A stretch of DNA of 63,240 nucleotides, counting the filler, from Licmophora abbreviata (lineage: Eukaryota), in NCBI GenBank assembly GCA_900291995.1. It is 17 parts of 17 records of this genome, joined end to end, with 100 filler letters (N's around TTAATTAATTAA, not from the genome) between each part and the next. Parts side by side here need not be neighbours in the genome. Positions count along the whole stretch, not along the records: positions 16,420 to 23,521 come from OLMU01001097.1; 16 more parts are not named here. One strand, 5' to 3'. Shown here one piece after another: positions 2,315 to 34,186 of the stretch. A model generated the notes under the pieces. That model saw nothing but the letters and a program-made list of their open reading frames with translations, made no database searches and was not told the origin of the DNA. How positions within the stretch are numbered: position 1 is the stretch's first letter; each line of letters begins with the position of its first letter. The position numbers and the translations under genes were made by a program.

Positions 2315-2330
2315 TCACGCAGGTTGCAAA

Positions 2331-2361: not shown

Positions 2362-2393
2362 AGTCTTTCACAATTTCAAAGAACGGGGGCGGG

Positions 2394-5614: not shown

Positions 5615-5714
5615 NNNNNNNNNNNNNNNNNNNNNNNNNNNNNNNNNNNNNNNNNNNNTTAATTAATTAANNNNNNNNNNNNNNNNNNNNNNNNNNNNNN
5701 NNNNNNNNNNNNNN
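5615..5714. other. Artificial contig linker; the same linker occurs at 10227, 12636, 16320, 23522, 26397, 27726, 29753, 32186, 35983, 38694, 51456, 54316, 57365, 60596 and 62063
   Basis: N44-TTAATTAATTAA-N44 (stops in all six frames), each 100 nt. Confidence 0.98.
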
Positions 5715-5930
5715 ATCACGCGGGCAGTCATGCGCCTGCGCGGCAAAGGTGGTGCCTGGCATTCGAATGGCCCCGCAAATCTGCCGGGGCACACAACTTG
5801 TGTCCATAAAATGGACCACAACCACTAAATCGTGGAATTTTCTTGCCGCTTTTGGTTGACGAAACCTCGGGATCAGGTAGCCTGTTCCCGCTGCTTTGAT
5901 TTTATACGAGTGATAGTGGGGGTGTGTGAA

Positions 5931-11249: not shown

Positions 11250-12095
11250 TCAGACGCAGGCCGCCATCAGGCGATAGACGATTTGTGCCGCGGTGAAATC
11301 CCAGGCCGCGTTTCCGTCGGGTGCCAGTTCGACCACGTCGAAGCCCACGCATGTCCGGCCCTGCAGCGCGCTTTCGACCAGATGGAGCGATTGGTAATAG
11401 TCCAGTCCACCGGGAACGGGCGTGCCGGTCGCGGGCATCTGCGACGGGTCCAGCCCATCAACATCGAACGACACATAGACAAGGTCCGGGAAGTCATCCG
11501 GCAGGGTGATCCGGTGGATACGCTCGGTCACCAGCTCTTCGGCATCGCGGAAAAACACGCCGTTCCGGGCCCGGCTTTCTTCTTCCTGACGGCAAAGCGC
11601 GCGCACGCCGAATTGCGCCAGCCGCACGCCGTTTTCGGACAGCAGATGCATGACCGACGCGTGCGAATGCGGCTCACCCTCATAAGCCACGCGCAGATCG
11701 GCATGGGCATCGATCTGTACGATCCCAACCGGACGATCCAGCGCGCGCATCACGCCGGTCACCGCACCATACGTCAACGAATGTTCACCACCAAGGGTCA
11801 CCGGGATCTGTCCTGCGCGCACCGCCGCTTCGGTGCGCTGCGCCAGCCGTTCCATCACTTCGGGCAATGGTGCTTGGCACTCCAGCGGGGCTTCGGTCAC
11901 GATACCGGCGGCACAAGGTTCCTGCCCGGCGCAGATCCGCTCCAGCTCGTTCGAGGCGGCGATGATCGCTTCGGGACCGCCTGCCGTGCCAGAACCATAC
12001 GACACCGTACGCTCAAGCGGCACGGGGATCACGCGAAAGCGCGCATCGTCGCCGCGTTCCGCTTCGGTCAGTTCGCTGTCCAGAAAAACGTTCAT
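11250..12095 (-). CDS. speB: Agmatinase / ureohydrolase
   Basis: GGEHS, DAHADL, SFDVDGLDP..MPATGTP Mn-binding motifs; start MNVFLD overlaps the nspC stop. Confidence 0.88.
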   Translation of the reverse strand: MNVFLDSELTEAERGDDARFRVIPVPLERTVSYGSGTAGGPEAIIAASNELERICAGQEPCAAGIVTEAPLECQAPLPEVMERLAQRTEAAVRAGQIPVTLGGEHSLTYGAVTGVMRALDRPVGIVQIDAHADLRVAYEGEPHSHASVMHLLSENGVRLAQFGVRALCRQEEESRARNGVFFRDAEELVTERIHRITLPDDFPDLVYVSFDVDGLDPSQMPATGTPVPGGLDYYQSLHLVESALQGRTCVGFDVVELAPDGNAAWDFTAAQIVYRLMAACV

Positions 12096-13364
12096 GACAG
12101 GCGCTCCTTGAAGTCCTGATATCCGAATTCCCGCACGATGCGCAGATCGTCGGTCCGGCTGTTCCACAGGGCGATGGCGGGCAGGGGCACACCGTTGAAG
12201 GTGTTGGTCTTGACCATCGAGTAATGCGCCTGATCGAGAAACGCGAAACGCTGCCCGATCTCGAGCGGCGCGGCCCATGTGTAATCGCCGATGATATCCC
12301 CCGCGAGGCAAGACGGCCCGCCCAGCCTGTAGGTGTGTCCGGCATCCGCCTCGTCCAGAAGGGCGGGACGGTACGGGGCTTCGATGACGTCCGGCATATG
12401 GCAAGTCGCGGAAATATCGGTGATCGCGATGGGCATGGTGTTGTGGAACGTATCAAGGATTTCACCCACAAGGATGCCTGCATCCAGCGCCACCGCCTCG
12501 CCCGGTTCCAGGTAAACCTCGACGCCATGACGCGCGCGCAGATCGCGAATGAACGCGATCAGAGCCTCGCGGTCGTAATCGTCGCGGGTGATGTGATGCC
12601 CGCCGCCAAGGTTGATCCATTTCAACTGACCCAGANNNNNNNNNNNNNNNNNNNNNNNNNNNNNNNNNNNNNNNNNNNNTTAATTAATTAANNNNNNNNN
12701 NNNNNNNNNNNNNNNNNNNNNNNNNNNNNNNNNNNAGATAGGGCGCGATCAGCGGCTCGACCGCGGCCCATGTGCGCGCCAGAGGCTCGAACCCCTGTTC
12801 GCACAGGGTATGCATATGCAGCCCCTCGACACCCTCAAGGGCTGCAGCATCGAGTTGCGTCACCGGAAAGCCAAGCCGCGAACAGGGCTGGCAAGGATCG
12901 TATTTCGGCACCTCGCCTTCGGAATGCTGGGGGTTGATCCGCAGACCTACCGACACGCCCGCCGCCGCGGCGCGCGGCCCGAACCGGTCTTTCTGGGCGG
13001 GGCTGTTGAAGACCAGATGATCGCTCAGCCCGATGATCTCGTCGATCTCCGAGGGCTTGTAGCCGGTGGAAAAGGTCGTGACCTCGCCGCCATATTCCTC
13101 GCGCCCCAGCCGTGCCTCAAAAAGCCCGCTGGCACAGGTGCCCGACAGATAGGTGCGCACCAGCGGCGCCAGCGAGAACATGGAAAACGCCTTGAGCGCA
13201 CTCAGCATCCGTGCGCCCGACCGCTCGCCCACATCGGCAAGCGCCTTGAGATTGGCCTCGATCGCGACCTCGTCGACCACGAAACAGGGCGACGGCACCC
13301 GCATCAGATCGAACTGGCGGAACGCGCCAGCGTCGCCCGCCTGTGTCTGCATCATCTGCGTCAT
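12092..13364 (-). CDS. nspC: Carboxy(nor)spermidine decarboxylase; split by gap 12636-12735
   Basis: ALKAFS PLP lysine, GLRINP, YDPC...SRLG, GLHMHTLCEQ, NLGGGHHIT, EPGE, CHMPD, CLAGD, HYSMVKTNTFNG. Confidence 0.92.
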
Positions 13365-13390
13365 GCCGTCTGCCCCTTTTGACTGCCTGC

Positions 13391-14602
13391 TCAGAACGAG
13401 ACCGGACCATCCAGCTCGTGCACCTGCCATGGCAGGCCATGGGCGTTCAGCATGTCCATGAAGTCATCCGGGTCCAGCTGCTCCATGTTCCAGACGCCGG
13501 GTTCGTTCCAATTGCCCTTGAGCACCTGCGCCGCGCCGATCATGGCTGGCACACCGGTGGTATAGGACACCGCCTGACTGCCCACCTCGGCAAAGCATTC
13601 CTCGTGGTCGCAGATATTGTAGATGTAATATGTCTTCTCGCCCGAGCCGTCCTTGGCCTGCCCGGTCGCGATATCGCCGATGCAGGCCTTGCCCTTGGTC
13701 TGCTCGCCCAGATCGCCGGGATCGGGCAACAGCGTCTTGAGGAACTGGATCGGGATGATCTCGACCCCGTTATGCATCACCGGGTCGATCCGGGTCATGC
13801 CGACATTCTGCAGCACCTTGGCATGGGTGATATAGGCATCCCCGAAGGTCATCCAGAAGCGCGCGCGCTCGATCTCGGGGAAATGGGTGCTCAGGCTTTC
13901 CAGCTCCTCGTGATACATCAGGTACATGTTCTTCGGCCCGATGCCGGGGAAATCGAACTCGACCTTGTGGGACATGGCGGGCGTCACCTTCCAGTCGCCG
14001 CCTTCCCAATGCTTGGCGTCCTGCAGCACCTCGCGCAGGTTGATCTCGGGGTTGAAGTTGGTCGCGAAGGCCTGATCGTTGGTGCCGCCATTGGCATCCA
14101 GAACGTCGATCTGGCGGATCGTGTCCAGCTTGTGTGTCTTCAGCCATTTCGCAAAGACGCTGGTCACGCCCGGATCAAAGCCCGAGCCGAGGATCGCCAC
14201 AAGCCCCGCCTCGCGGAACTTGTCGTGATAGGCCCATTGCCAGTGATATTCGAACTTGGCCACATCCTCGGGCTCGTAATTGGCGGTGTCGAGATAATGC
14301 ACCCCGGCTTCAAGACAGGCATCCATCAGCTTGAGGTCCTGATAAGGCAGCGCCAGGTTCACAAGGATCTCGGCCCCTGTCTTGCGGATCAGATCGACCG
14401 TCGCCGCCACGTCCATCGCATCGAGCGCATAGGTGTCGATATCCACGCCCACGCGCTCTTTCACCGATGCGGCGATCGCGTCGCATTTGGATTTGGTGCG
14501 GCTGGCCAGGCTGATATGCGTGAAGATGTCCGAGTTCATCGCCATCTTGTGGACGGCGGCATGGCTGACGCCTCCGGCGCCGATAACGAGTGTCTTGCCC
14601 AT
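13391..14602 (-). CDS. Carboxy(nor)spermidine dehydrogenase (saccharopine dehydrogenase family)
   Basis: IGAGGV, NLALPYQDL, YLDTANYE, GSGFDPG, FATNFNPEINLRE, YHEELESL, QAVSYTTGVP. Confidence 0.92.
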   Translation of the reverse strand: MGKTLVIGAGGVSHAAVHKMAMNSDIFTHISLASRTKSKCDAIAASVKERVGVDIDTYALDAMDVAATVDLIRKTGAEILVNLALPYQDLKLMDACLEAGVHYLDTANYEPEDVAKFEYHWQWAYHDKFREAGLVAILGSGFDPGVTSVFAKWLKTHKLDTIRQIDVLDANGGTNDQAFATNFNPEINLREVLQDAKHWEGGDWKVTPAMSHKVEFDFPGIGPKNMYLMYHEELESLSTHFPEIERARFWMTFGDAYITHAKVLQNVGMTRIDPVMHNGVEIIPIQFLKTLLPDPGDLGEQTKGKACIGDIATGQAKDGSGEKTYYIYNICDHEECFAEVGSQAVSYTTGVPAMIGAAQVLKGNWNEPGVWNMEQLDPDDFMDMLNAHGLPWQVHELDGPVSF

Positions 14603-14630
14603 GACTTCTGTCTCCCCAGTCTGTTGAGCG

Positions 14631-16611
14631 CTATTCGTAATAGGTATAGCCGTTGATGCTGTCGCGATAGGCCTGCATCAAGGGGCGGCGTTCCTCGACG
14701 CTGATCGTTCCGGCCGAGATCGCGCCATCCACCAGCTTGCGGAAGGCCGCGACACAGTCGCTCGGATCGTATTCCACATAGGACAGAACCTCGGCGATGG
14801 TGTCACCTTCCTGCTCATGCAGAAGATCGAATCCGCCATCGGTCCGCAGGTCGATCGTCACCACATTGGTATCGCCGAACAGGTTGTGCAGATCGCCAAG
14901 CGTCTCCTGATAGGCGCCGACAAAGAACACCCCCATGTGATAGGGACGGTCCTCGGGCAGATCATGCACCGGCAAGGAGGGCGACGTGCCTTCGCTCAGG
15001 ATGAACTTGTCGATCTTGCCATCGCTGTCACAGGTGATGTCCGACAACACCGCGCGCCGCGTCGGCGCCTGATCGAGCATCTGCAACGGCATCAGCGGAT
15101 GCAGCTGATCGATGGCCCAGACATCCGGCAGGGACTGGAACAGCGAGAAATTGCAGTGATAGATATCGGCGAGCTTGTGCAGCTCGTCCTCGATATCGGC
15201 GCCGCGTTCATCGGCGGCGGCCAGCGCCTTGATCCGCGCCATCAGATGCCGATAGATCTTTTCGGTGCGGGCCATCTGCCGGATGCCGATCTGGCCCCGG
15301 CGGAACAGCGCGCGCATCTCGTTGCGATAGAAGCTTGCGTCATTGAGACATTCACGCAGCCGGTCGCCCGACAGGTAGCCGCCCACCGCGATCAGATCGC
15401 TGACAAGGTGGTGATCGCCCGGCTCGGCATCGGGGGCTTCGCTGGCGTCGAACAGCGTCGCCTCGAGCACGTTGAAAATCAGCATGGACGAACTGGCCGC
15501 CACGGCCCGGCCGCTTTCGGTCACCAGCGTGGGATGCTCGATCCCCGCCTCGTCCATCGCGTAGCCCACCGTCTCGACGATATTGGCGCAATATTCCTCG
15601 ATGCTGTAATTGATCGAATTGGCCGACGCCTTCTTTTCGCCGGTGTAATCAAACCCCAGACCGCCGCCCAGATCCAGATGGGTCAGGGGCGCCCCCTCGG
15701 CCTTCATCTCGCTGAAATAGCGGCAGGCCTCGCCCACCGAGCGGCGCACGTCGTTCACGTCCGGCACCTGACTGCCCAGATGCGAATGTTGCAGCATCAG
15801 GCAATGCAGAAGCCCCGCATCGCGCAGCTTGTCGATCACCTCGACCAGTTGCGCGGTGTTCATCCCGAAGGTCGAGCGATCCCCGGAACTTGCCGCCCAG
15901 TTGCCGCCGATCTGGTTGGTCAATTTCACGCGAACGCCCAGCATCGGCTCGGTGCCAAGCGCGCGGCTGGTCTCGATCACGGTGTCCACTTCCATCACGC
16001 TTTCCAGCACGATCACCGTGTTGAAGCCCAGCTTGCAGGACTGGATCGCCAGACCGACGAATTCGGCATCCTTGACCCCGTTGCACACGATCAGCGCATC
16101 GCGGGCCAGCTTGTGGGCCAGCGCGATCACCAGCTCGGGTTTCGATCCCGCCTCGAGCCCGAAATCATGCGAGCGGCCAAAATCCACGATCCGGTCCACA
16201 ACCTGCGCCTGCTGATTGACCTTGATCGGAAAGACACCACGATAGGTGCCGCGATAGCCCGCGCGCTCGATCGCGTCGCGAAAGCCATGATTGATCTGCT
16301 GGATAGCATGTTCCAGATANNNNNNNNNNNNNNNNNNNNNNNNNNNNNNNNNNNNNNNNNNNNTTAATTAATTAANNNNNNNNNNNNNNNNNNNNNNNNN
16401 NNNNNNNNNNNNNNNNNNNCACCCTCAGCACCATGGGCGTCTGGATGCCGCGCTTTTCCAGATCGTGGATGATGCCGGGCAGGCTGACGGCGGGCGCATC
16501 GGGCGCCATGGGGTTTTTCAGCGCGACCTCGCCGTTCTCGAGAACCTCGAAAAACCCGTGTCCCCAACGGTTCAGACCGTAAAGCTCTCCGTGAGTGGCG
16601 CTCGTCGTCAT
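14631..16611 (-). CDS. speA: Biosynthetic arginine decarboxylase; split by gap 16320-16419
   Basis: GVFPIKVNQQ, GLEAGSKPEL, HSHLGSQ, DLGGGLG, TESGR, NFSLFQSLPDVWAIDQL, DITCDSDG, GAYQETLGDLHNLFG. Confidence 0.93.
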
Positions 16612-17089: not shown

Positions 17090-17290
17090 GGCAAAAGTCA
17101 CTCTTGATAAAAGCCCGACCTTAGCCGGGCTAGCGGGTATTTCCGTGACCTCAATCTGGCACGATCATGGCGGTGGGGGCGCGCGCACGGCATCGGCACG
17201 TAGCGGGACCACGCCGGGTCGCGTTTCCCTCAGGCCGCGTCTTGTGATTAGTCTTGTCCGAACGCCTGTTCCGGATTATGTCAGATGCAA

Positions 17291-17410
17291 ATCCATAGGG
17301 GAGCCTCGCCACAGAGGCTGAGAAACCGATAGGTCTCTGGACGATGAACCAGTGCCGGTGCGGTGACCCTTTTAACCTGATCCGGATCATGCCGGCGGAG
17401 GAAATGGGAT
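17291..17410 (+). ncRNA. TPP riboswitch (THI element)
   Basis: GGGGAGC...GCTGAGA...GACCCT..AACCTGATCCGGATCATGCCGGCGGAGGAA matches the TPP consensus; SD-sequestering hairpin GTTTCC-GAGA-GGAAAC downstream at 17448-17463. Confidence 0.93.
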
Positions 17411-17468
17411 ATGCTTGAGGTGGCACTCGCATTTGACGCCGGCACCGGTTTCCGAGAGGAAACAGCCC

Positions 17469-18551
17469 ATGACGCGTGATGATATCGTCGATGATCTGCT
17501 CAACTTCATCGCGGCTGATGATCCCTCCGAGGATGCGTTCAACGCGCTGGCTTTGAAAGTCCATGGTTTCCAGTTTCAGCACAACGCGCCTTACGCGAAA
17601 TTCGCGCGCTCGCGGGGCAAGACGCCGCGCACCGTCAAGCACTGGTCCGACATTCCGCCGGTGCCGATAAACGCGTTCAAGACGCTCGATCTGACATGCT
17701 GCCTGCCGGAAGACGCCGTGGCCGTGTTCATGACCAGCGGCACCACCCAAGCCGGGCGGCGCGGCAAAAGCTATCACGCGGGCCTCGAAGTCTATGACGC
17801 CTCGATGCGCCGCAACTTTGCACAGCGTTTCATGCGCGGCGACACGGGCATAAAGATGGGCATCCTGTTTCCGACGACCCGGATGATGCCAAACTCGTCG
17901 CTTGCGCATTATCTTGACCTTGCCATCACCGGCTTTGGCACGCCGGACAGTGAATGGCTGATCGGAGCGGACGGGATCGATCATGCCCGGCTGATCCATG
18001 CCCTCGAAGAGGCCGAGGCGACGGGACAAAGCTATGCGCTGCTTGGGGCAAGCTTCAGCCTTGTGCACGCCATGGATGCGGTGCAGGCCGAGGGGCGCCG
18101 GTTCCATCTGCCGCCGGGCAGCCGCATTCTCGATACCGGAGGGTTCAAGGGCCAGTCCCGCGAGCTGGAGCTTGATGCCTTTTACGACGCGCTCAGTGAA
18201 ACCTTCGGTGTGGCCCGCGACGACTGCATCGGTATGTACGGGATGACCGAGCTTTCGTCGCAATTCTATGATGACGGGAACGCGATATGCCCCTCGGTCA
18301 AATCCGGGCCACATTGGGTGCGCAGCCGTGTGGTCAATCCGTTGACGGGCATGGCGGTGCCCAAGGGCGAAACTGGGGTTCTGGCCCATACCGACCTTGC
18401 CCATTACAACATCGTCACCACGATCCTGACCGAAGATGCCGCCATCGAGACCGAGGATGGATTTCAGCTTCTTGGGCGCGTTTCCGGCGCCGAGGCGGTC
18501 GGCTGTTCGATGGCGGTTGACGCCTTTCTCAAGGCGGCGGAGGCGGGCTGA
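17469..18551 (+). CDS. LuxE-like acyl-protein synthetase (adenylate-forming)
   Basis: FMTSGTT P-loop, GGFKG, YGMTELSSQ, C-terminal GR...EAVGCS carrying the Cys expected to be acylated. Confidence 0.85.
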   Translation: MTRDDIVDDLLNFIAADDPSEDAFNALALKVHGFQFQHNAPYAKFARSRGKTPRTVKHWSDIPPVPINAFKTLDLTCCLPEDAVAVFMTSGTTQAGRRGKSYHAGLEVYDASMRRNFAQRFMRGDTGIKMGILFPTTRMMPNSSLAHYLDLAITGFGTPDSEWLIGADGIDHARLIHALEEAEATGQSYALLGASFSLVHAMDAVQAEGRRFHLPPGSRILDTGGFKGQSRELELDAFYDALSETFGVARDDCIGMYGMTELSSQFYDDGNAICPSVKSGPHWVRSRVVNPLTGMAVPKGETGVLAHTDLAHYNIVTTILTEDAAIETEDGFQLLGRVSGAEAVGCSMAVDAFLKAAEAG

Positions 18552-18557
18552 TCTGCG

Positions 18558-20000
18558 ATGGTGGAGCGCGCGTGTTATCTTCCCGGCCTTGATCCTGAGG
18601 CCCTGCATTGGAAAACCCTGACATTCGGGCAGGGTGGCGGGCCGGTGTATGAGGTAGCGGTTCCCGTGCTCGAACCGCAGGACATGACCCGTCTTGCCGC
18701 CCATGTGCGCCATCATGCGGCCCAGCATTTGCGTCCAATGCCCGTGTCGCGCATCGTCGAGGTGATCGACAGGGTGATCGCCCGGCTGCTTGACCGGCAA
18801 GACCCGTATCGCCAACGCATGGAACGGGCGCTGCCGGTCGTGACCGGATATGACGCCGAGATGGTGCGCGTGGGATTGACCCGCTATCTCAAGACGTTTC
18901 GCAAACCCGAGCTTCTGCGCTTTCTGGCAGAGGATTTTCCCAATCCCGCGATCCTTGATGAGTTTCAACCCTTGCCAAAGGGTGGCTATGGGCGGGCCAT
19001 CGGCCCCGGTGTGCTGGGGCATATCTGGGCCGGGAATGTCCCCGCCTTGCCGCTCTGGAGCCTTGTCTGCGGTCTTCTGGTGAAATCGGGCACGATCGGC
19101 AAAGTCTCGAGTGCCGAGCCGCTCTTCGCCACATGGTTTGCCGAAGTTCTGGCCGAGGTCGCGCCCGAGCTTTCCGATTGTCTTGCGGTCGTGTGGTGGC
19201 AGGGCGGCGAGGACGCACCGGAACGCGCCCTGTTGCAGTCAGCCGATATGGCCCTTGCTTATGGCAGTGCCAACGCTTTGGCCGATATCCAAAGCCGTAT
19301 GCCAAGCGGAAAACGTTTGCTGCAGTTCGGCCACAAGGTCAGTTTCGCAATGATTGCAGCCGAGGCGCTCGATCCGGCCAAGGCCGCCGACACCGCCCGC
19401 CGTGCCGCCGAGGACATTGCCCGCTACGACCAGCAAGGATGTTTTGCCCCGCATGTGGTGTTCGTTGAAAAGGGTGGCCACGTCTCGCCGCGCGTCTTTG
19501 CGCGCTATCTGGCGGGGGCCTTGTCCGCGTTCGGGCAACGCTACCCGCGTCGCGCCCTGAGCATGGCCGAGGCCAACAGCCTTGCCGCATGGCGCCAACA
19601 AGAGGAATTCGCCCATGGCGCCGAGCTGATCGGCGATGCGCTGGGCGACTGGAGCGTGTCCTTTCATGAGGGCGGTCAGGGGTTTGGCCCCTCTTGCCTC
19701 AACCGCGCGATACGGGTGGTGGCTGTCGATGGGCTGATCGATGTGCCCGGTCAGGTCGCCCCTTACCGGGCCGTGCTCCAGACTGTGGGCATCGCCGCAC
19801 CGCCCGATGCCCTGTTCAAGCTGGCGGGCCTGCTGGGTGAGGCCGGTGTCACGCGGATCGCGGCCCTTGGGGACATGACCACACCCGAAGCGGGCTGGCA
19901 TCACGATGGCCGGTTCAACCTGTCCGATCTCGTGCAGATCACCGAGATGGACGCCCGCGCCCCACCTGCGGCGGACGGGCTGGCCTCTTACGATGACTGA
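18558..20000 (+). CDS. LuxC-like acyl-CoA/acyl-protein reductase
   Basis: HIWAGNVP, K.SS.EP, GHKVSF, YDQQGCFAPH catalytic Cys, GWHHDG. Confidence 0.87.
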   Translation: MVERACYLPGLDPEALHWKTLTFGQGGGPVYEVAVPVLEPQDMTRLAAHVRHHAAQHLRPMPVSRIVEVIDRVIARLLDRQDPYRQRMERALPVVTGYDAEMVRVGLTRYLKTFRKPELLRFLAEDFPNPAILDEFQPLPKGGYGRAIGPGVLGHIWAGNVPALPLWSLVCGLLVKSGTIGKVSSAEPLFATWFAEVLAEVAPELSDCLAVVWWQGGEDAPERALLQSADMALAYGSANALADIQSRMPSGKRLLQFGHKVSFAMIAAEALDPAKAADTARRAAEDIARYDQQGCFAPHVVFVEKGGHVSPRVFARYLAGALSAFGQRYPRRALSMAEANSLAAWRQQEEFAHGAELIGDALGDWSVSFHEGGQGFGPSCLNRAIRVVAVDGLIDVPGQVAPYRAVLQTVGIAAPPDALFKLAGLLGEAGVTRIAALGDMTTPEAGWHHDGRFNLSDLVQITEMDARAPPAADGLASYDD

Positions 20001-20763
20001 CCGCGCGCGCGCCCTGACCCTGCAGCAGGTCGATTTCGCCTATCCCGGCGAAGCCCCGATCCTGCAGGACGCCAGCCTCTCGCTGGCGCCGGGCGACTTC
20101 CATTGTCTCGTCGGGCGCAGCGGCTGTGGCAAGACCACCTTGTTGAAACTCGCGGCGGGTCTGCTGCGCCCCACCAAGGGATGCGTTCGTATCGGCGACA
20201 CGATCCTCAATGGCCCGTCTCGGCAGATCGGGTTCGTCTTCCAGACCCCAAGCCTGCTGGATTGGCGCAGCGTGCTCGACAACGTGCTTTTGCCCATTTC
20301 CCTGCACCGCAGCGTGACCGCGACCGACCGCGCGCGCGCCATGGACCTTCTCGCCCTGACGGGTATCGACGCCCATGCAAAGCGCTACCCGTGCCAGATG
20401 TCCGGGGGGCAGCAAAGCCGGGTCTCGCTGGCCCGTGCCCTCGTGACAGAGCCGCCATTTCTGCTGATGGACGAACCCTTTGCCGCCGTCGATGCGATCA
20501 CGCGCGAAGATTTGCAGAACGATCTGCTGCGCCTGACCCGCGCGCAGGGCACCACGGTTCTGTTCGTCACCCATGACATTGCCGAGGCCGTCTATCTGGC
20601 AAGCCATGTCTCGGTCATGCAATCGGGCCGCATCATACGAAGCCTTGCCATCGAAGTGCCGGAACATGCCTCCGGCGACAGCCGGTATCACCCGCAAGCC
20701 ATCCGGCAGTGCGAAGAGATCAAGGCGGCCCTCGCACCCGCCTTGGGGACCGTGACGCCATGA
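19993..20763 (+). CDS. ABC transporter ATP-binding protein (TauB/SsuB/ThiZ type)
   Basis: GRSGCGKT, MSGGQQSR, LLMDEPF; overlaps the upstream stop. Confidence 0.92.
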   Translation: MTDRARALTLQQVDFAYPGEAPILQDASLSLAPGDFHCLVGRSGCGKTTLLKLAAGLLRPTKGCVRIGDTILNGPSRQIGFVFQTPSLLDWRSVLDNVLLPISLHRSVTATDRARAMDLLALTGIDAHAKRYPCQMSGGQQSRVSLARALVTEPPFLLMDEPFAAVDAITREDLQNDLLRLTRAQGTTVLFVTHDIAEAVYLASHVSVMQSGRIIRSLAIEVPEHASGDSRYHPQAIRQCEEIKAALAPALGTVTP

Positions 20764-21521
20764 CCGGTGCGCGCCTTGCGTCGATCGGCCTGTTTCTCGG
20801 CCTCGGCCTGATCTGGGAGATCTGGGTAACGATGTCGGGCGTCTCGAGCCTTCTGGTGCCCGCGCCATCGGCGGTTCTTGCGGTGCTGTGGCAGGGGCTG
20901 ACCGATGGCTTTCTCTGGCCACATATCCGGGTCACCTTTGCCGAAACGCTTCTGGGCTTTGCTCTGGGCAGCGTCATCGGCTTCGCCTTCGGCGTGCTCC
21001 TGAGCGAGGTGGACATGCTGCGCCGCGTGCTCTGGCCCTATATCCTGGCCAGCCAGGTGGTGCCGAAATTGGCGCTTGGGCCGATCTTTATCGTATGGTT
21101 CGGGTTCGGACTGACCTCGATCGTCGTCATCACCGCGCTGATCTGCTTTTTCCCGCTGCTCGAAAACACCGTGACGGGCCTTCGCTCGGCGCCCGCCGAT
21201 CAACGCGATCTCTTCCGTATGCTGGGGGCGAGTCGTCTGCAAACGCTGTTGCGGCTGAAAATCCCCGCCGGGTTGCCGGTCATCCTCGCGGGGGTTCGGG
21301 TGTCGGTCGTGCTGGCGCTCGTGGGCGCCGTGGTCGGAGAGTTCATCTCGGGCGGGCAGGGGCTTGGCGCCAGCATCATCGCGGCGCAGGGGATGATGGA
21401 CACGACACTGATGTTCGCGCTTTTCATCGTCATCACGGTGATGGGCATGCTGTTTTATCAACTGACCATATTGGCAGAACGCTGGCTGCTTCGCCGCCGG
21501 CAGACGGGAGACGAGATATGA
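20760..21521 (+). CDS. ABC transporter permease (SsuC/ThiX type)
   Basis: QVVPKLALGPIFIVWFGFG, GASRLQTLLRLKIPAGLP, VVGEF; ATGA overlap. Confidence 0.9.
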   Translation: MTGARLASIGLFLGLGLIWEIWVTMSGVSSLLVPAPSAVLAVLWQGLTDGFLWPHIRVTFAETLLGFALGSVIGFAFGVLLSEVDMLRRVLWPYILASQVVPKLALGPIFIVWFGFGLTSIVVITALICFFPLLENTVTGLRSAPADQRDLFRMLGASRLQTLLRLKIPAGLPVILAGVRVSVVLALVGAVVGEFISGGQGLGASIIAAQGMMDTTLMFALFIVITVMGMLFYQLTILAERWLLRRRQTGDEI

Positions 21522-22492
21522 TGTTACGTACACTAGCCGCCCTTGCCGCCCTTGTCCTGAGCGTGTCCCAGGTGTCCGCGCAAGACCTCGACAAGGTGAC
21601 AATCGCGGGCTGGAGCAAGCCGATCAGCGAAATCACCAACATCCTGGCCGAACCGGACAAGGGGTTCTTCAAGGCGCATGGGATCGAGCTTGGATATGTT
21701 CCGGGCACCGGCGGAGGCTCTGCGATCACCAACATGCTGTCCGGGGCGGCGGATGTCGCCTTTACCGATCCCGCCTCGCTGTATCAGGCGCTCGATCAGG
21801 GCGCGGATTTGGTGGCGATCTACAACATCTATCCGCAGAACGTGTTCAACGTTGTTGCCCCCTTGGGGCGCGGGATCGAAACCGCCGCCGATCTCAAGGG
21901 CAAGACCATCGGGGTTTACAGTCTGAACAGCGGAACGCGCCAGAACCTTCTTTTCCTGCTCCATCAGGTGGGCCTGACCGAGCAGGACGTGACCATTCAG
22001 GTCACCGGCCTTTTGAACTTTGGGCCGGTGATCCAAGGGCAGGTGGATGCCACCGCCGCCACCGATACCGGCCTCTATATCGGTCGCCTCAATGGTCTGG
22101 GAGAGGTCAATGTCATCAACGTCGCCGACAGCTTGAACGTGCCCACGGATGTTTTCGTGGTCACGCGGGCCTATTACGAGGCCAACAAGCCGATTCTGCG
22201 CCGCTTCCTGCAGGCCTATCGCGACAGTGCCCAGTGGATGATCGACAACCCGCAAGAGGCCGCACAGATCGCCGTGACCCGGTCGATCAACGGTCGTGAC
22301 GAGGCGGTCAATCTGGGGATCATAGACCTTCGCAACCTGTCCGCCCAGTCCGAGACGACGCGCGCCAAGGGGCTGGGGCATTTCGATGTCGATGTCCTTC
22401 AGGAGGGCGCCGATGCCTTTCTTGCGCAGGGGCTGATCTCGTCGGCGCTCGATATGCGCCGCGTGATCGTCACAGACCTCATCCCGGAGTGA
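21518..22492 (+). CDS. ABC substrate-binding protein, NMT1/THI5-like (ThiY-like)
   Basis: Signal peptide; KGFFKAHGIEL, GGGSAI...SGAADVA, ADLKGKTIGV. Confidence 0.82.
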   Translation: MMLRTLAALAALVLSVSQVSAQDLDKVTIAGWSKPISEITNILAEPDKGFFKAHGIELGYVPGTGGGSAITNMLSGAADVAFTDPASLYQALDQGADLVAIYNIYPQNVFNVVAPLGRGIETAADLKGKTIGVYSLNSGTRQNLLFLLHQVGLTEQDVTIQVTGLLNFGPVIQGQVDATAATDTGLYIGRLNGLGEVNVINVADSLNVPTDVFVVTRAYYEANKPILRRFLQAYRDSAQWMIDNPQEAAQIAVTRSINGRDEAVNLGIIDLRNLSAQSETTRAKGLGHFDVDVLQEGADAFLAQGLISSALDMRRVIVTDLIPE

Positions 22493-22496
22493 TCGC

Positions 22497-23264
22497 ATGG
22501 ATTTTGCTGGCAAAACCGTCCTAGTCACCGGCGCCAGTCGCGGGATCGGAGCGGCGATCGCAAAGGCGTTTGCAGCCGAAAATGCGTCTGTCGTGGTCAA
22601 TTATCTGCAGAATGCGCAAGCCGCCGATGCCACCGTCGCCGCCTGCAACGCTCTGGGCGGTGACGCTCTGGCGCTACAGGCCGACGTGACCGATCAAGCG
22701 GACGCCCGCAGGCTGGTTGCGGACGCGCTCGACGCCTTCGGCAAGGTCGATATTCTGGTGCACAACGCTTTTGCACCCTTCGTGTTCTCTCCGGAAAAGC
22801 GCAAACTGTTCTGGGAGCTGGACTGGAGCGATTTCCAGGCTCAGATCGACGGCTCGGTCAAGGCGGCCCATGGCATGATCCAGGCGGTCTTGCCCGGCAT
22901 GCTCGAGCGGGCCGATGGCACGATCATCACGATCGCCACCAATCTGATCGCCCATCCCGTGGTGCCCTATCACGACTACACCACCGCGAAATCCGCGTTG
23001 GTTGGCTTTGGCCGCAACCTTGCGATGGAACTGGGGCCGTTGGGTATCCGGGTCAACACCGTGTGCCCCGGGCTGGTCTATCCGACGGATGCAAGTCGCG
23101 AGGTCAAGGAGGAGCTCAAACAGTCCCTTATCGCGCAGACACCGCTGCGACGGATCGCAACCCCCGAGGATGTCGCCGGTCCCGTGCTGTTCCTCGCCTC
23201 CCCTTGGGCGCGTTTCATGACCGGTCAGACGCTTTACGTGGATGGCGGCGCGATGATGCGCTGA
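22497..23264 (+). CDS. Short-chain dehydrogenase/reductase (FabG-like)
   Basis: TGASRGIG, HNA, YTTAK catalytic motif, GIRVNTVCPG, TGQTLYVDGG. Confidence 0.92.
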   Translation: MDFAGKTVLVTGASRGIGAAIAKAFAAENASVVVNYLQNAQAADATVAACNALGGDALALQADVTDQADARRLVADALDAFGKVDILVHNAFAPFVFSPEKRKLFWELDWSDFQAQIDGSVKAAHGMIQAVLPGMLERADGTIITIATNLIAHPVVPYHDYTTAKSALVGFGRNLAMELGPLGIRVNTVCPGLVYPTDASREVKEELKQSLIAQTPLRRIATPEDVAGPVLFLASPWARFMTGQTLYVDGGAMMR

Positions 23265-25909: not shown

Positions 25910-27311
25910 GTCCGCTCCAGGTGATCAAGGGCATCGCGAAAGAATGTCTCGGCGCCGAAATTGCCCGATTTCAACGTCAGGGCGGCCGCATGTCCGCCGA
26001 TGTCGCAATAGCACCATGGCACGCCCGGCGCGATCTCGGGGCCGATATCAAGCCGGGTCACCCCAAGCGCCTGCGTCACGGCGCCGGATGTTTCGCCACC
26101 CGCCACGACGAAGCGCCGCGCGCCCATCTCGAACGCCTTCCGCGCGCAGGCGGCCAGCGTCTGCTCGACGATCTCGCCGGCCTCAGCCGCGCCAAGGGCC
26201 GCTTGCGCGGCGCGAACGGCGTCCGGTTGGCTGGTGGCATAGATCAGCGGCGCTTGCGCAAGATCCTGGCTCTGGAGCCAGTCCAACGCCGATTGCGCCC
26301 CCTCCCGCGCCAGGATGAGCGGATCGAGGCGCAGACCGGGGCGGCCTTGGGCCAGATAGGCCGCGACCTGCCGGTTGCTCATCTCCGAACAACTGCNNNN
26401 NNNNNNNNNNNNNNNNNNNNNNNNNNNNNNNNNNNNNNNNTTAATTAATTAANNNNNNNNNNNNNNNNNNNNNNNNNNNNNNNNNNNNNNNNNNNNCGAC
26501 CTGCCGGTTGCTCATCTCCGAACAACTGCCCGAAAGAACGATGGTTTCGGGGCGGCAGATCGGGCGCGGGCAGGGCGCGGGCCGTGTCGCCGAGCATCCC
26601 GGCCTTGCGCAACAGCGCGGGCACCGGCATGGCCAGCGCCGAGCCACCGGTCATCAGCGCATGGTCACCACAGGCCGAGGCGATGGTGGTCAGATCGGCG
26701 TCGGCCACGGCATCGACGATCACATGCGCGACGCCATCCTCGGCGAGCTTGCGCAACTCTGCGCGCACCGCGTCACTCCCCTGTGCCACGCAAAGCCTGT
26801 CGATCAGGCCGACGGGGCCTGCCACCTGCGGCGCCAGCAGCCGGACCAGATTGCTGTCGCGCATCGGGGTCAGGGGATGGTCGCGCATCGGGCTTTCGGC
26901 CAGCGGCGTCCGGCCCACGAACAGATGCCCCATATAGACGCTGCGCCCGTTTTCGGGAAAGGCGGGGCAATACACGGTCTGTCTGGCGCCAAGCCTGTCC
27001 ATCAGGGTTTCGGCCACCGGGCCGATATTGCCTTGCGGGGTGGAATCGAAGGTCGAACAGTATTTCCAGAAAAACCGCTGAGCCCCTGCGGCGTGCAACC
27101 AATCGAGCGCCGCAAGCGCCTCGGTCTTGGCGGTGGCTGTAGGCGCGGTGCGTATTTTCAGCGCGATGACCTCGAAAGGGGCAGGGTCCTCCGGCGGTGC
27201 CTGCGGCACCCCGATGCGCAAAGAGACCCTTGCGCCCGACCGGGCCAGCAATCCGGCAAGGTCGGTGGCGCCGGTGAAGTCATCGGCGATGGCCCCGAGC
27301 AGGCAGGTCAT
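25906..27311 (-). CDS. otnK: 3-oxo-tetronate kinase (DUF1537 family); split by gap 26397-26496
   Basis: IADDFTGATD, KYCSTFDST, HPLTPM.D, SGSCS, VAGGETSG, KSGNFG. The contig ends overlap by 33 bp, and there is an apparent indel near 26550. Confidence 0.9.
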
Positions 27312-28132
27312 GGCGTGTCATCGCCCGGCAGGGTCAGCCCGGCGTTGCGGGCATAGACCTTGGCCACGGCCGCGTCGTCTTCGGCGCCATGTCCCATACC
27401 CGAGGCCGCCAGAAACTGCTGCAATGCCGTTGCGGTCAGCGGGGCCGAGAACCGGGCGTCGCGCGCGATGTCCAGAGCGATCCCGAGGTCCTTGGGCCAG
27501 ATTTCCACCGAGCTGCGGGCTTCGTAATCGCCTGCGACCACCCGAGGCGCGCGGCTTTCGAGCATCCAGCTGGTTCCGGCGCTGCGCGAGATCACCTCGA
27601 GAAACGTCTCCGGAGAGATCCCTTGGGTCATCCCGAAGGTCAGCGCCTCGCCCATGGCGGCGATATGAATGCTCGCCAGCATCTGATTGACGGATTTCAT
27701 CGCCGAACCGGGGCCGGCCTTATCGNNNNNNNNNNNNNNNNNNNNNNNNNNNNNNNNNNNNNNNNNNNNTTAATTAATTAANNNNNNNNNNNNNNNNNNN
27801 NNNNNNNNNNNNNNNNNNNNNNNNNCGCGGGCAAAGGCGGGCGACACTGTCGCGCAGGACAGGATGACCGCGCCGGGCCGCATCCGCGCCATGAGACCAT
27901 CCGGGCCGCAAAGCACCGTTCGGGTCTGGGCGGCGTTCAGCACCACGACAACGAGAACGTCCAGCGACGCAAGCGCATCATGCAAAGTGCCGGGTTGGCC
28001 CCCTTCCGCTTGAAACCCCGTGACCGCATCCGGATTGACGTCATGGCCCCAGGTTTCAAGCCCGGCCCGCACGAGCGAACAGGCCATGCCAAACCCCATC
28101 GACCCCAAGCCCACAATGCCGATTTTCGTCAC
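27308..28132 (-). CDS. ltnD: L-threonate dehydrogenase (beta-hydroxyacid dehydrogenase family); split by gap 27726-27825
   Basis: GLGSMG, VVVLNAAQT, K.VNQML...HIAAMGEA, SAGTSWM, IWPKDLG; GGAGGAGG RBS before the GTG. Confidence 0.85.
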
Positions 28133-28514
28133 GCCGCGTCCTCCTCCGAACATGCCAACCGAAACGTTGATCCTGTTGTCAGGTCAATAAGGCAGTATCC
28201 TCGCGCTTTCCAGCAGGATTGCCGTGCCGGTTGTTGGGATATATCCCGAGCGCTCCAAGGCGCGGACCTCCCCGATCCAAATTGAAAAACCTGCCGCCCT
28301 CCACCCCTCGGGCCAAGGCAGGATTTTTGCCGTTTGCGTACAAGATGGACACAATTTCCGGGATTGAACCCCGGTTTCGTCCCAAACGCGCGTAGGTTTC
28401 GTACGGATCGTACGGCCCCAAAGCGGTTCCTCTCGGCAATCCATCAGTGCAACGGTTCGAGTTTCGTCTTTGAAATGTGAGGCACCAGCGATTGTCCCAT
28501 AGGTTTTCATTGAA

Positions 28515-30840: not shown

Positions 30841-33132
30841 ATGTACGATGGGTCGAACCAAGCCAAAGTCAGTGTCCTCAAGCCTCAAACGCAGAGCGTT
30901 GTGGCGGAGCGCGCGCAGGTCTTCGACAATCGCGCTGACCGCGATGATGAGATCGACCTTTTGGCTCTTGTGGCGACTCTTTGGAGGGGCAAGTGGATCA
31001 TTGCGCTGATCACGACCCTCGCGATTCTGATGGGTGGCGTTTACGCGTATGGTGTTGCCGTACCTCTCTATACCGCGAATTCCGTGGTTCTGTTGGAGAC
31101 AAAACAGAACCAGATCGCGGACCTTGAAAGCGTTGTGTCCGGCCTCAGCGGAGACACGAGTGAGGTGAATTCCGAGGTCGAGATCCTGCGGTCACGTATT
31201 CTGCTGGGACGTGTGGTGGATCGTTTGGATCTGGAAAGTGATCCGGAATTCAACGGCGCCCTGCGGGAGCCAGGAGTGCTGGACAATGTGAAATCCTCCG
31301 TAATCGGTGCGATCAAGGTGGCCATCGGCCAGACCGAACTCGAGCAGATGCTTTCGCCGGAACTGCAGGCCAAGAGAACCCATGACAACGTGGTATCAAA
31401 CTTGCTGAATAAAATGCAGGTGTCGAACATACGCCAAAGCCTTGTGTTCCAGATCCAGGTTGAAACCAACGATCCGCAAAAGTCCGCTCGGATCGCGGAT
31501 ACCATCGCAGAGGAATACACCAGCTCTCAGCGTGACGTGAAGTTCGAGGCGACCGAACAGGCCAGCGAATGGCTGAGCGAGCGTGTGGCCGAACTCAAGC
31601 TTGAGCTGGAAGAGGCCGAGCAGGATGTCGCGCGCTTCAGTTCATCGACGCGGCTGGTGTCTGCAGAGGCGCTGGAAGGGCAGGAACGGCAACTCAAGGA
31701 GATGCGCGATCGCATCGCCGCGAACCGGGACACACAAAGAGCGCTTGAGGCCCAAGTGCAAAATCTTGAGGCGGCCAGCACCCCCGAAGAAAAGGTGGCG
31801 ATCGCCGATGATCGGTTGTTGTCGCAATTAGCCGAAGGTTTGGATGGCAGCGAGCGTGCCCGTGCGGCGTTCGACGACAGGTTCGCCGGATTGGTCTCGG
31901 GTCTGCAAGCCAACCTGACCCGGGTAACGCGTCAGCTTGCCAGCCTGACAGCTTCGGCCGCGATCCTCGAAGAGCAGATCACGCAACAGACCGAAGACCT
32001 GATCGAGTTGCGGCAACTGCGCCGCGAGGCGGAAGCGACGCGGTTGCTATATGAGCATTTCCTGACCCGGCTTGGGGAAACATCGGCGCAGCGCGGGATT
32101 CAGCAAGCTGACAGCCGACTGATTTCCAGCGCCGTGGTGCCACAAGTGCCGTCATTCCCGCGCAAATCCTTGATTCTCGCCTTGTNNNNNNNNNNNNNNN
32201 NNNNNNNNNNNNNNNNNNNNNNNNNNNNNTTAATTAATTAANNNNNNNNNNNNNNNNNNNNNNNNNNNNNNNNNNNNNNNNNNNNGGTTCTGGGTCTGAT
32301 GCTTGGGGCAGCGCTGATCCTGATCCGTGAAATGCGCAACAACACCTTCAAGATCGCGCGCGATCTCGAGGCCTTCGGGGGCTATGCCGTGCTTGGACAG
32401 ATACCGGCAATGCCGATCAAGAAGCGGAACGAGGTGTTGTCCTATGTGAATGACAAACCGACCTCGGCTGCGGCGGAAGCTGTGCGCAACCTGCGCAGTT
32501 CCGTGATGATGGCCAATCTGGACAATCCGCCGCAAACCATTGTCGTCACATCCTGCTTGCCGGCTGAGGGCAAAACAACGGCTTCGCTCATGTTGGCCCA
32601 TAACTTCGCGGCGGTTGGCAAATCCGTGCTGTTGATGGAAGGGGACGTGCGCCGCCGAACCTTGAACGAGTATTTCGATGTCTCCGAAAAGCGCGGCCTT
32701 GTTTCTGTCTTGGGTGGTTTTGCGAAACTCGAGGATGTGGTCTATACGTCCGAGGCCTTGGGTGGGGATGTGTTGTTGACCGAGGAAAGCCGCGTGAATG
32801 CTGCCGACTTGTTTTCCTCCGAGAAATTCAGCGCGTTTATGGAGATGGTCAAGAGCCGCTATGACGTGGTAATCATCGACACGCCGCCTGTTCTGGTGGT
32901 GCCTGACGCCCGTATTGTCGCGCAGCATGCCGATGCCGTGCTGTTCAATGTGAAGTGGGACAGCACCAGCCAACCCCAAGTTCAGGAAGCCATGCGCCTG
33001 TTCCACAATTCGGCGCAGCGCATCACCGGTTTCATCCTGAACGGCATCAGCGCCAAGGGCATGAAATACTACGGGTATGGTGGAAAATACGGCGCCTATG
33101 GTGCGTATGATTCCAAGTATTATAGCAGCTGA
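30841..33132 (+). CDS. Polysaccharide co-polymerase / BY-kinase (Wzc/ExoP family); split by gap 32186-32285
   Basis: DEIDLL..LWRGKW TM segment, coiled coils, P..PSFP motif, Walker A P.EGKTT, VIIDTPP, Tyr-rich tail YYGYGGKYGAYGAYDSKYY. Confidence 0.93.
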
Positions 33133-33379
33133 ATTCAGACCGTGGTGGCGTAAGTGCCGGCTGCAAGCGTGATCCTGTTGCGGCTCAGGGTGTCGGGACT
33201 GGTCATGGCTTTCGAAACACGCCTTGTCCCAAAGTGCCTTGGACCCCTCGAAAAAATCCAGATGCTACCGTAGAGTAAATATGCGACCAGCCTGATCTGA
33301 CGCGATTGATCGGGCATGTTGTTCCGATTCCGTTGATGACGGAGTGTTGAGATCGGTAAAAACTGTGCAGGTAACGATT

Positions 33380-34186
33380 ATGGCCAAGACGCCGTCCCGG
33401 CTGACCCAGTCTGTGACACAGGACATCCAACACATTCTTTCGGGTCCCGCGTCGCCTGTCGCGCTTGAGCGGGCCTTCCGCCATCTGGCCAAGTGGCGAT
33501 CCCATCTTCTGGAAAACACCATACTGCAAAACGATGGCGACGTGGTGCAGGGTGGGCCCTTCAAGGGTATGACCTATTCATGCCGCGCCACCGAAGGGGC
33601 ACGTATCGCCCGCATCTTGGGCTGCTATGAAACCACTCTGGCTCCCGTGATCGAAGAGGCCATCGCACGGGCCTATCCGCTGGTGATCGATGTGGGCTGC
33701 GCCGAGGGGTATTACGCCGTGGGTTTGGCCACCCGTATGCAAGACACACGCGTGATGGCGCGCGATGAAAACCCCAAGGCAAAAGAAAGCTGCACCGCCT
33801 TGGCCAAGGCCAACGGCGTGGCAGACAGGGTTGAGGTCGGCGGTCGCATGGATCACGCCGATTTCGACATCTGCATGACGCAAAAGACGCTGGTGATCTG
33901 CGATATTGAAGGCGCCGAAGACGCGCTTTTGGACATCGAGAAAGCACGGGGTCTGACGCATGCGGATATCCTTGTGGAATGCCATGACTGCATGGTCCCG
34001 GGTCTGTCGGACAAAATCGAGAAGAGGTTTCAGGCCACGCACAGGGTAACGCGCCTGGAGCGCGCCATGGATAGTGATGCCTTGCCCGGCTGGATGGAGC
34101 AACTCAGCGATCTGGACCGCGCCATTGCCCTTTGGGAGTGGCGCTCGGGTCCGACCCCGTGGCTCTGGATGCAGCGGCATGACTGA
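33380..34186 (+). CDS. Class I SAM-dependent methyltransferase-like protein
   Basis: GPFKGM, LGCYE, IDVGCAEGYYAVG, CDIEGAE. Confidence 0.78.
   Translation: MAKTPSRLTQSVTQDIQHILSGPASPVALERAFRHLAKWRSHLLENTILQNDGDVVQGGPFKGMTYSCRATEGARIARILGCYETTLAPVIEEAIARAYPLVIDVGCAEGYYAVGLATRMQDTRVMARDENPKAKESCTALAKANGVADRVEVGGRMDHADFDICMTQKTLVICDIEGAEDALLDIEKARGLTHADILVECHDCMVPGLSDKIEKRFQATHRVTRLERAMDSDALPGWMEQLSDLDRAIALWEWRSGPTPWLWMQRHD

Follow-up and report, generated by a model that had tools for sequence, protein, structure and literature searches.

A thiamine pyrophosphate riboswitch-led operon joining LuxE/LuxC-like enzymes to an OarX-type reductase: a candidate reductive salvage route for an oxidised vitamin B1 derivative

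Since 2002 (Rodionov et al.) a FabG-like short-chain reductase (SDR), OarX, has been tied to thiamine pyrophosphate (TPP) riboswitches and thi genes, its function remaining unassigned (PMC11223231). In 2024 Oliveira-Filho, Rodionov and Hanson proposed that it reduces an activated carboxyl derivative, the candidates being the pyrimidine acid pyrimidine-5-carboxylate (PCA), the thiazole acid 4-methylthiazole-5-acetate (MTA) and thiamin acetic acid; all three are known thiamine oxidation products, the fate of PCA being given as unknown, and OarX was linked to FmnO, with weak clustering with acyl-coenzyme A (acyl-CoA) synthetases (PMC11223231). The other system of relevance is the LuxC-LuxE complex of P. 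phosphoreum, whose structure is 7xc6. In those portions of the structural report that are drawn on here (PMC9157457), the catalytic cysteine of LuxC is Cys296, the adenylation site of LuxE involves Lys238 and Arg355, the acylated residue of LuxE is Cys364 within a C-terminal TRxxKGCxLS, and the LuxC of bioluminescence accommodates a C14 chain in a cleft that is L-shaped, long and hydrophobic. Relatives of both systems come together in one operon of a 63,240-nucleotide stretch from the Licmophora abbreviata assembly GCA_900291995.1, this whole stretch being ‘the window’ in what follows (it is 17 parts joined end to end, and parts side by side need not be neighbours in the genome). There a TPP riboswitch stands directly before six genes, for a LuxE-like and a LuxC-like enzyme, the three components of a ThiXYZ-like importer and an OarX-type SDR. 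What would such an operon be for? On comparative genomics, i.e., riboswitch linkage, thi genes and catalytic residues, it probably serves, as a reading of the sequence alone had proposed, to reduce a thiamine-related carboxylate to its alcohol for salvage under repression by the riboswitch. The specific version, in which PCA would be reduced to hydroxymethylpyrimidine (HMP), we put at an even chance.

The riboswitch aptamer, at 17287 to 17420 on the + strand, fits the full Rfam model RF00059 (model positions 1-105) at 69.9 bits, the gathering score being 54.3 (E 1.1e-11), and is one of just two gathering-level Rfam matches in the window, the other being a tRNA. It is followed by a leader, or expression platform, of 48 bases (17421 to 17468, +), in which the ribosome-binding site GAGAGGAAAC lies 5 nt 5′ of the ATG of the first gene. 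In the minimum-energy fold GGUUUCC is paired with GGAAAC over that ribosome-binding site. The fold is not clearly above shuffles (z -1.92, with 7 of 200 shuffles equally stable), and terminator-like sites in the riboswitch region are at chance level, numbering 5 where 4.8 are expected; none of them is inside the leader. A conserved alternative helix, in which the aptamer pairs through its 3′ half with the leader downstream of it, is common to eight close relatives, the changes there being mostly invariant or one-sided. Because the fold barely beats its shuffles and terminators are at chance level, the claim made here is limited to a likely translational platform: from the folding predictions, repression by TPP at the level of translation is the likely mode, and the direction of regulation is to be read in the same conditional way.

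All six genes are on the + strand, start with ATG and stop with TGA. The first encodes a LuxE-like acyl-protein synthetase (17469 to 18551; Pfam PF04443 at 56.9 bits against a cut-off of 24.9, over residues 4-350 of 360), the second a LuxC-like acyl-thioester reductase (18558 to 20000; PF05893, 310.9 bits). Then come an ABC transporter ATPase of the NitT/TauT type, as in ThiZ (19993 to 20763; PF00005, ABC_tran, 105.7 bits), an ABC transporter permease, as in ThiX (20760 to 21521; PF00528, BPD_transp_1, 96.4 bits), and a ThiY-like substrate-binding protein of the NMT1/THI5 family (21518 to 22492; PF09084, 149.1 bits). The OarX-type SDR is last (22497 to 23264; adh_short_C2, 205 bits). The sequence-only reading was right to place a TPP riboswitch directly before these genes, and nearly right in having every junction at an overlap or gap of 6 nt or less. 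In order, the junctions are a gap of 6, an overlap of 8, two overlaps of 4 (in the first of which the permease ATG overlaps the ATPase stop) and a gap of 4 nt, so that four are as stated and one, the 8-nt overlap ATGACTGA between the LuxC-like and ATPase genes (18558-20000 / 19993-20763), is not.

How close are the first two proteins to the enzymes from which their families take their names? Among solved structures each has a single phmmer match, in both cases from the same complex: 7xc6_E, LuxE, for the LuxE-like protein (E 8.5e-14), and 7xc6_A for the LuxC-like protein (E 2.3e-21). Identity to P. phosphoreum LuxC and LuxE, as judged from these alignments, is about 20-25%. Within them K227, R337 and C346 of the LuxE-like protein are opposite LuxE Lys238, Arg355 and Cys364, and all three are invariant in 77/77 aligned relatives; Cys295 of the LuxC-like protein is opposite LuxC Cys296, and is invariant in 78/78. 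Cys346 is within a GCS motif and Cys295 within DQQGC, and the earlier description of both motifs as intact is borne out by their alignment to the cysteines of 7xc6. The LuxE-like protein would then adenylate a carboxylate and carry it as a thioester on its own C-terminal cysteine, and the LuxC-like protein would be an NADPH-dependent acyl-thioester reductase that releases the aldehyde.

Intact cysteines and the Pfam family names LuxE and LuxC are also what an ordinary fatty-acid reductase would have, one that makes a lipid or wax aldehyde or alcohol and is near a thiamine transporter by chance. Scores on the families of the bioluminescence enzymes themselves argue otherwise: the LuxE-like protein reaches 59 bits on the LuxE equivalog NF052244 of NCBIfam, whose cut-off is 550, and the LuxC-like protein 98.5 bits on the LuxC equivalog NF052251, with a cut-off of 750. 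By Pfam, neither luxAB nor luxD is among the six operon genes or among 37 flanking open reading frames (ORFs) at 1.3-44.5 kb (a set of 10, seven from the window, plus a set of 27; ORFs at 44.5-63 kb were outside the scan), which agrees with what had been read from the sequence. Far under the equivalog cut-offs as they are, the window proteins, judged by sequence, are not the bioluminescence enzymes.

The substrate cleft of LuxC permits a further comparison. From the portions of PMC9157457 used, 14 cleft positions were carried over by hand via one phmmer pairwise alignment, and as a constant offset of 11 matches all 14 chain residues to the names given in that paper, the numbering is verified. 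Near the catalytic entry, positions are kept: LuxC Tyr291, Cys296, Phe297, Gln402, His442 and Asp443 are Y290, C295, F/Y296, Q408, H449 and D450 of the window protein. Elsewhere the hydrophobic or small residues of LuxC are replaced at six positions, with Met114, Ser118 and Ala121 becoming K (68/78), R (78/78) and Q/E (76/78), at window K112, R115 and E/Q118, and Ser166, Thr169 and Phe436 becoming L (77/78), W (78/78) and P (78/78), at window L164, W167 and P443. Of the others, Trp111 is mostly Gly in the relatives and Leu107 mostly Leu. At these 14 positions of one hand-read alignment, the window LuxC-like protein does not have the hydrophobic C14 cleft of its bioluminescence counterpart. The pattern is as would be expected for the Lux mechanism acting on a small polar substrate, and it is graded as moderate evidence since it comes from a single pairwise alignment read by hand. 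Among the relatives described below, moreover, the riboswitch is directly 5′ of luxE in 61 loci and in the Pantoea-type loci governs the three enzymes only, which is hard to square with a chance neighbour. A fatty-acid reductase is, on all of this, a most improbable explanation. Action on fatty acids alone had been named beforehand as the outcome that would undo the salvage proposal; on the sequence side, the equivalog scores and the changed cleft point away from it.

The third enzyme, the SDR, reaches 292.9 bits on NCBIfam NF006393 (PRK08642), just over the cut-off of 292. In five carrier genomes the cluster SDR scores 273-300 bits on this model and the next paralogue at most 176.5, and TGxxRGIG, Y161 and K165 are conserved in 70/70 relatives. 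It is FabG-like, stands apart from its paralogues, is 3′ of a TPP riboswitch and is clustered with thi or transport genes, which is the context of OarX. In the part of Supplementary Table 1 of PMC11223231 that is drawn on here, Bordetella trematum peg.3604 is listed as an OarX adjoining ThiY1/ThiX1, and a Bacillus OarX precedes ThiM-ThiD-ThiE. The latter arrangement is also that of a Mesobacillus locus described below, and in a by-eye comparison only, 40 of the first 60 residues of the window SDR are identical to those of peg.3604. By context, and by its likeness to peg.3604 as judged by eye, the window SDR appears to be a member of the OarX family. Examined by eye, the OarX proteins in that part of the table are of two sequence types, one like the window SDR (B. 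trematum peg.3604, Bifidobacterium) and the other a C. variabile/Alcaligenes/Bacillus type, and B. trematum has one of each. The OarX of C. glutamicum appears to be of another subclade than the window SDR, a judgement made by eye from the same table and not computed. It may be that the OarX proteins linked to FmnO act on another substrate than those linked to LuxCE.

Has the association with LuxE and LuxC been seen before? LuxC, LuxE, acyl-protein synthetase and acyl-CoA reductase go unmentioned in the main text and two supplements of PMC11223231, and a literature search, with subscription journals mostly outside its coverage, gave no report linking TPP riboswitches, thiamine or OarX with LuxC or LuxE. 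The sequence-only reading had known of no characterised pathway like this. The pathway is indeed uncharacterised, and the LuxCE-OarX link is new to the literature searched, but carboxyl reduction by OarX is already in print, having been proposed in 2024 (PMC11223231).

The extent to which the arrangement recurs is relevant here. With the LuxC-like protein as query and one genome per species, 366 relatives were found; 80 loci were taken for analysis, with their architecture determined by tblastn with the six window proteins, and a covariance model built from five of the riboswitches was run over all 80. DNA upstream of luxE is present in 74 of them, and 70 of these 74 have a TPP element, directly 5′ of luxE in 61 and with one gene between in 9, which leaves 4 with none. 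Rfam at gathering level confirmed the element in six of nine test loci; four weaker elements were at 42.2-58.1 bits in Rfam (E 6.6e-5 to 8e-9). A second scan, with a divergent Ectobacillus LuxC that is 40% identical to window LuxC, yielded 15 Bacillaceae loci, bringing the total to 95 LuxCE-OarX loci; 14 of the 15 have a TPP element and the remaining one has only 288 nt upstream. Recurrence in 70/74 means that the riboswitch-plus-gene arrangement is not chance. The expectation that homologous clusters keep their riboswitch is upheld by both searches, and the contrary outcome of mostly switchless clusters, which would have counted against the proposal, is not what was found.

The four loci without a TPP element (L005, L019, L033 and L076) had none by the covariance model, nor by Rfam in E-value mode. 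Their leaders are short and resemble simple promoters, and the four are treated as presumed secondary losses; in L019 and L033 a simple promoter, or a site to which a protein binds, may have taken the place of the switch. These two have a common conserved leader stretch, at about 5830-5915, that contains TTGACTTGCAA. Another locus, L017, has tandem TPP riboswitches, one at 3533-3668 before thiC and the other at 5692-5826 between thiC and luxE; within its thiC reading frame a short stretch is masked (XXXX).

The full six-gene order is found in Alphaproteobacteria (Roseovarius, Azospirillum, Roseomonas, Asaia), Betaproteobacteria (Polaromonas, Ramlibacter, Comamonas) and Bacilli (Ammoniphilus, Mesobacillus, Ectobacillus). 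A smaller form, luxE-luxC-SDR alone behind the riboswitch with no transporter, is that of seven Pantoea-type loci and of several alphaproteobacterial metagenome-assembled genomes, and this enzyme trio is the core of the cluster. The neighbours in Pantoea were considered as a clue to a transporter and set aside, being an unrelated peptide ABC system and peptidases, and uninformative. The gene that intervenes between riboswitch and luxE is thiD (PF08543, 317.7 bits) in eight Ramlibacter-type loci, where it is first behind the riboswitch, and in Ectobacillus polymachus it is a permease of the NCS2 xanthine/uracil family (PF00860, 247 bits). All 15 Bacillaceae loci of the second scan have NCS2 permease-luxE-luxC-SDR, with NCS2 replacing the ABC importer. 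On the 3′ side of the SDR, thiE (and thiG) are found in five Ramlibacter-type loci, thiM in Ammoniphilus, and thiM-thiD-thiE both in Mesobacillus and in six of the Bacillaceae loci (Neobacillus/Bacillus).

The window itself has the ABC type of importer. Its ATPase, whose position is conserved across the six-gene loci, has taurine/sulfonate-type ATPases as its best NCBIfam matches, all of them under their cut-offs. By phmmer the binding protein matches ThiY 3ix1 (ranked under 3qsl and 4nmy) and yeast THI5 (E 3.4e-4 and 3.9e-4), and its N-terminus, MMLRTLAALAALVLSVSQVSAQD, looks like a signal peptide when judged by reading. A binding protein of the NMT1/THI5 type, with a NitT/TauT-type permease and ATPase, under a TPP riboswitch, is the make-up of ThiXYZ-type systems, and the three proteins, of which the binding protein would be periplasmic, would form a ThiXYZ-like importer with a thiamine-related ligand as its presumed cargo. 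A second ABC system is encoded in the window at 1316-4465 (+). Its binding protein is NMT1-like (41 bits) and is accompanied by an ATPase and a long permease, and there is no Rfam gathering-level riboswitch nearby.

Does the gene content of the carriers help to choose between PCA, MTA and thiamin acetic acid, the three substrates that the sequence-only reading had left side by side? Ten carrier genomes, some of them drafts, were searched with Pfam families. ThiD is found in 10/10 and ThiG in all five tested; ThiM (PF02110) is not over its cut-off in five of the ten, two of these being complete-level assemblies, and ThiC is not found in four of the ten. Thiamin pyrophosphokinase (TPK, PF04263) is found in two of five carriers, the two Roseovarius genomes, and ThiK (TIGR02721) is over cut-off in none of the five, which leaves three with neither. 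In three carriers, an Azospirillum (G002), a Polaromonas (G004) and a complete alphaproteobacterial chromosome (G007), ThiD is the only recognised salvage kinase, which is in line with HMP being the product, and with neither hydroxyethylthiazole nor thiamin in that role. Further pointers agree: thiD heads the operon in eight loci, the NMT1/THI5/ThiY type is that of the binding protein, and the permease recruited independently in Bacillaceae is from the NCS2 nucleobase family. Of the three substrates, then, gene content favours PCA.

The thiazole acid MTA, itself a known thiamine oxidation product (PMC11223231), would be the substrate to suppose if thiM, which is directly 3′ of the SDR in Ammoniphilus, Mesobacillus and the six Neobacillus/Bacillus loci, were taken as the guide. 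However, half of the ten carriers have no ThiM over cut-off, all five carriers tested have ThiG and so would make their own thiazole, and both transporter types, like the eight loci with thiD first, point to a pyrimidine. In addition a C. glutamicum thiG mutant was not rescued by MTA (PMC11223231), though the caveat about that host given below for PCA is pertinent here also. We regard MTA as an unlikely substrate. The chance that whole thiamin acetic acid is taken up and reduced to thiamin seems slighter: it is a known bacterial and mammalian thiamine oxidation product (PMC11223231), and a thiamin pyrophosphokinase is present in both Roseovarius genomes, but three of five carriers have neither TPK nor ThiK over cut-off, thiD and thiE, which bracket the enzymes in Ramlibacter-type loci, would have no purpose if the thiamin were intact, an NCS2 nucleobase permease would be an improbable carrier of a bulky cation, and no rescue of C. 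glutamicum by thiamin acetic acid was seen (PMC11223231).

Some caution is in order over the choice of PCA. Genomes without ThiC show no enrichment of the cluster: among 201 genomes sampled from one family, ThiC is in 10/18 carriers and in 91/183 non-carriers, so that the cluster as a mark of HMP auxotrophs is ruled out. The thiM genes of Bacillaceae are directly 3′ of the SDR, and oarX is reported to cluster more often with thiazole genes (PMC11223231). The relationship of the binding protein to ThiY is distant (phmmer E 9e-8), the cleft comparison is a single hand-read alignment, and the absences of ThiM, TPK and ThiK are the outcome of family searches in genomes that are partly drafts and that may have kinases of unknown kinds. 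Lastly, in the only experimental study of OarX, each of five oxidation products failed to rescue auxotrophs of C. glutamicum (PMC11223231). All these weigh against PCA to HMP. Relevant to the last, C. glutamicum, the host of the 2024 OarX tests, carries oarX-fmnO (PMC11223231), and its genome, used as a control, has no match to the LuxC family PF05893. The negative tests were thus run in a host lacking the first two enzymes and do not address the LuxCE cluster. As for the co-occurrence with thiamine genes that had been suggested as a check, thiD, thiM, thiE or thiG are in the same operons in several lineages, ThiC-less genomes show no enrichment and ThiG is present in 5/5.

That carriage is independent of ThiC status fits repair as well as uptake, and brings in another explanation: either some other, uncatalogued thiamine-related compound is salvaged or detoxified (e.g., a further-modified pyrimidine or thiazole acid), or the ABC system imports HMP while the enzymes repair an intracellular aldehyde or acid damage product. 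The enzyme trio without a dedicated transporter in Pantoea-type loci is in keeping with this, and the 2024 authors conclude that OarX may act on some derivative of the five products that they tested (PMC11223231). Yet the recruitment of two unrelated transporter types argues for an external substrate, and the simplest known acids already fit the chemistry. We give this explanation perhaps a one-in-several chance, i.e., it is rather unlikely, and it is reduction of imported PCA that is followed in what comes next.

The relative nearest to the window is Roseovarius litoreus (97% LuxC identity), whose draft genome was used as a stand-in for whole-genome context. ThiC and ThiM were not found in it, and it is an apparent pyrimidine auxotroph on this gene content. 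Only two TPP riboswitches were found there (150 of 236 first-look candidates were scored), one on thiD-thiO... and the other on this cluster, which means that the cluster importer is the only riboswitch-controlled uptake system found in that genome. How would such a bacterium use the operon? When TPP is scarce, the leader would permit translation of the genes. The ThiXYZ-like ABC importer would take up the acid, a role that in Bacillaceae would fall to the NCS2 nucleobase-type permease. The LuxE-like enzyme would adenylate it with ATP and load it as a thioester on C-terminal Cys346; the acyl group would pass to Cys295 of the LuxC-like reductase, and 5-formylpyrimidine would be released at the expense of NADPH. 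The OarX-type SDR would then reduce the aldehyde to HMP, which ThiD would phosphorylate to feed ThiE. A bolder extension, which we hold more tentatively and think somewhat less probable than its negation, is that bacteria trade PCA, or a compound close to it, as a B1 vitamer that has been overlooked, that LuxE/LuxC/OarX gives them a third way, a reductive one, to salvage the pyrimidine, and that it is the main pyrimidine source in ThiC-less carriers, e.g., the Roseovarius lineage of the window.

The emphasis on marine B1 cycling that had accompanied the sequence-only reading has not worn well. Among 251 sampled genomes of the Roseovarius family (Rhodobacteraceae) a LuxC-like gene is in one only, R. 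litoreus itself. It is in 18 of 201 sampled genomes of the Ramlibacter/Polaromonas family and in many Azospirillum, Pantoea and Bacillaceae, the named carriers being mostly of soil, plant-associated or freshwater genera. With 1/251 in the one family and carriers mostly from those non-marine genera, the marine case is weaker than supposed. The patchy spread suggests horizontal transfer.

The surroundings of the operon in the window are unrelated to it. Upstream, on the other strand, are an arginine decarboxylase and a saccharopine-dehydrogenase-like gene, and on the 3′ side an epimerase and sugar-acid genes. The upstream block, at 12092-16199 (-), directly upstream of the riboswitch as the window is joined, also includes an Orn/DAP/Arg decarboxylase fragment, and looks like a polyamine block of the carboxy(nor)spermidine type. 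Further off, at 27308-28153 (-), adjacent ORFs have NAD_binding_11 (C-terminal) and NAD_binding_2 (N-terminal) domains of the 3-hydroxyisobutyrate/6-phosphogluconate-dehydrogenase type; a frameshift or a split gene could account for the pair, as could the way in which ORFs were picked. A Wzz chain-length determinant, a tyrosine-kinase-like ATPase and a glycosyltransferase at 30841-35846 (+) are probably an exopolysaccharide locus, and at 43148-44467 (+) there is a HipA-like toxin-antitoxin kinase (HipA_C 182 bits, Couple_hipA 92 bits).

Were the proposal true, OarX, an orphan of thiamine metabolism since 2002, would gain a testable job and its first assigned function, and the pair that precedes it would be the first LuxCE-type reductase to work in cofactor metabolism rather than in light production. 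The fatty-acid reductase of bioluminescence would then belong to a wider family of small-acid reductases. There would also be a new salvage route, and an exchangeable B1-related compound to include in models of auxotrophy for soil, plant-associated, freshwater and some marine bacteria. With a large OarX subclade wired to LuxE/LuxC and to pyrimidine-type importers, the open question becomes one of a three-enzyme assay and a growth test.

It is instructive to set the operon against what is known of comparable chemistry. Carboxylic acid reductases (CAR, which are like nonribosomal peptide synthetases) and routes with an acyl-CoA synthetase and a reductase take an acid to its aldehyde with ATP and NADPH, after which an alcohol dehydrogenase or SDR yields the alcohol. 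The net reaction proposed for the window operon is the same, but the architecture is unrelated: neither a phosphopantetheine carrier nor CoA would take part, and enzyme cysteines would hold the acyl group as in Lux. In Bacillus, ThiXYZ/ThiY with YlmB and TenA are reported to salvage base-degraded thiamine, in the form of formylaminopyrimidine (Jenkins et al. 2007; Bale et al. 2010; both cited in PMC5627462). That system, like the one envisaged here, has a TPP-regulated importer with an NMT1/THI5-type binding protein and turns a damaged pyrimidine into HMP for ThiD. It is hydrolytic, using a deformylase and an aminohydrolase, whereas the route proposed for the window operon would be reductive and would cost ATP and NAD(P)H.

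The LuxC-LuxE of luminous bacteria is under quorum-sensing control. The window operon would instead be under that of thiamine, and it is without luxAB, luxD and luxG. To judge from the portions of the structural work used here (7xc6, PMC9157457), the families are the same and the order of the chemistry would be too, i.e., adenylation with ATP, a thioester on the C-terminal cysteine of LuxE, transfer to the LuxC cysteine, then NADPH and release of an aldehyde. The cleft, however, differs: at hydrophobic positions of LuxC the window family has conserved K, R, Q/E, W, L and P. The closest likeness of all is with OarX as described in 2024 (PMC11223231), for the window SDR too is FabG-like, is behind a TPP riboswitch and is clustered with thi genes and transporters. 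The difference is in the partner: that paper has FmnO and, weakly, acyl-CoA synthetases, whereas here, in 95 loci, it is the LuxE/LuxC pair.

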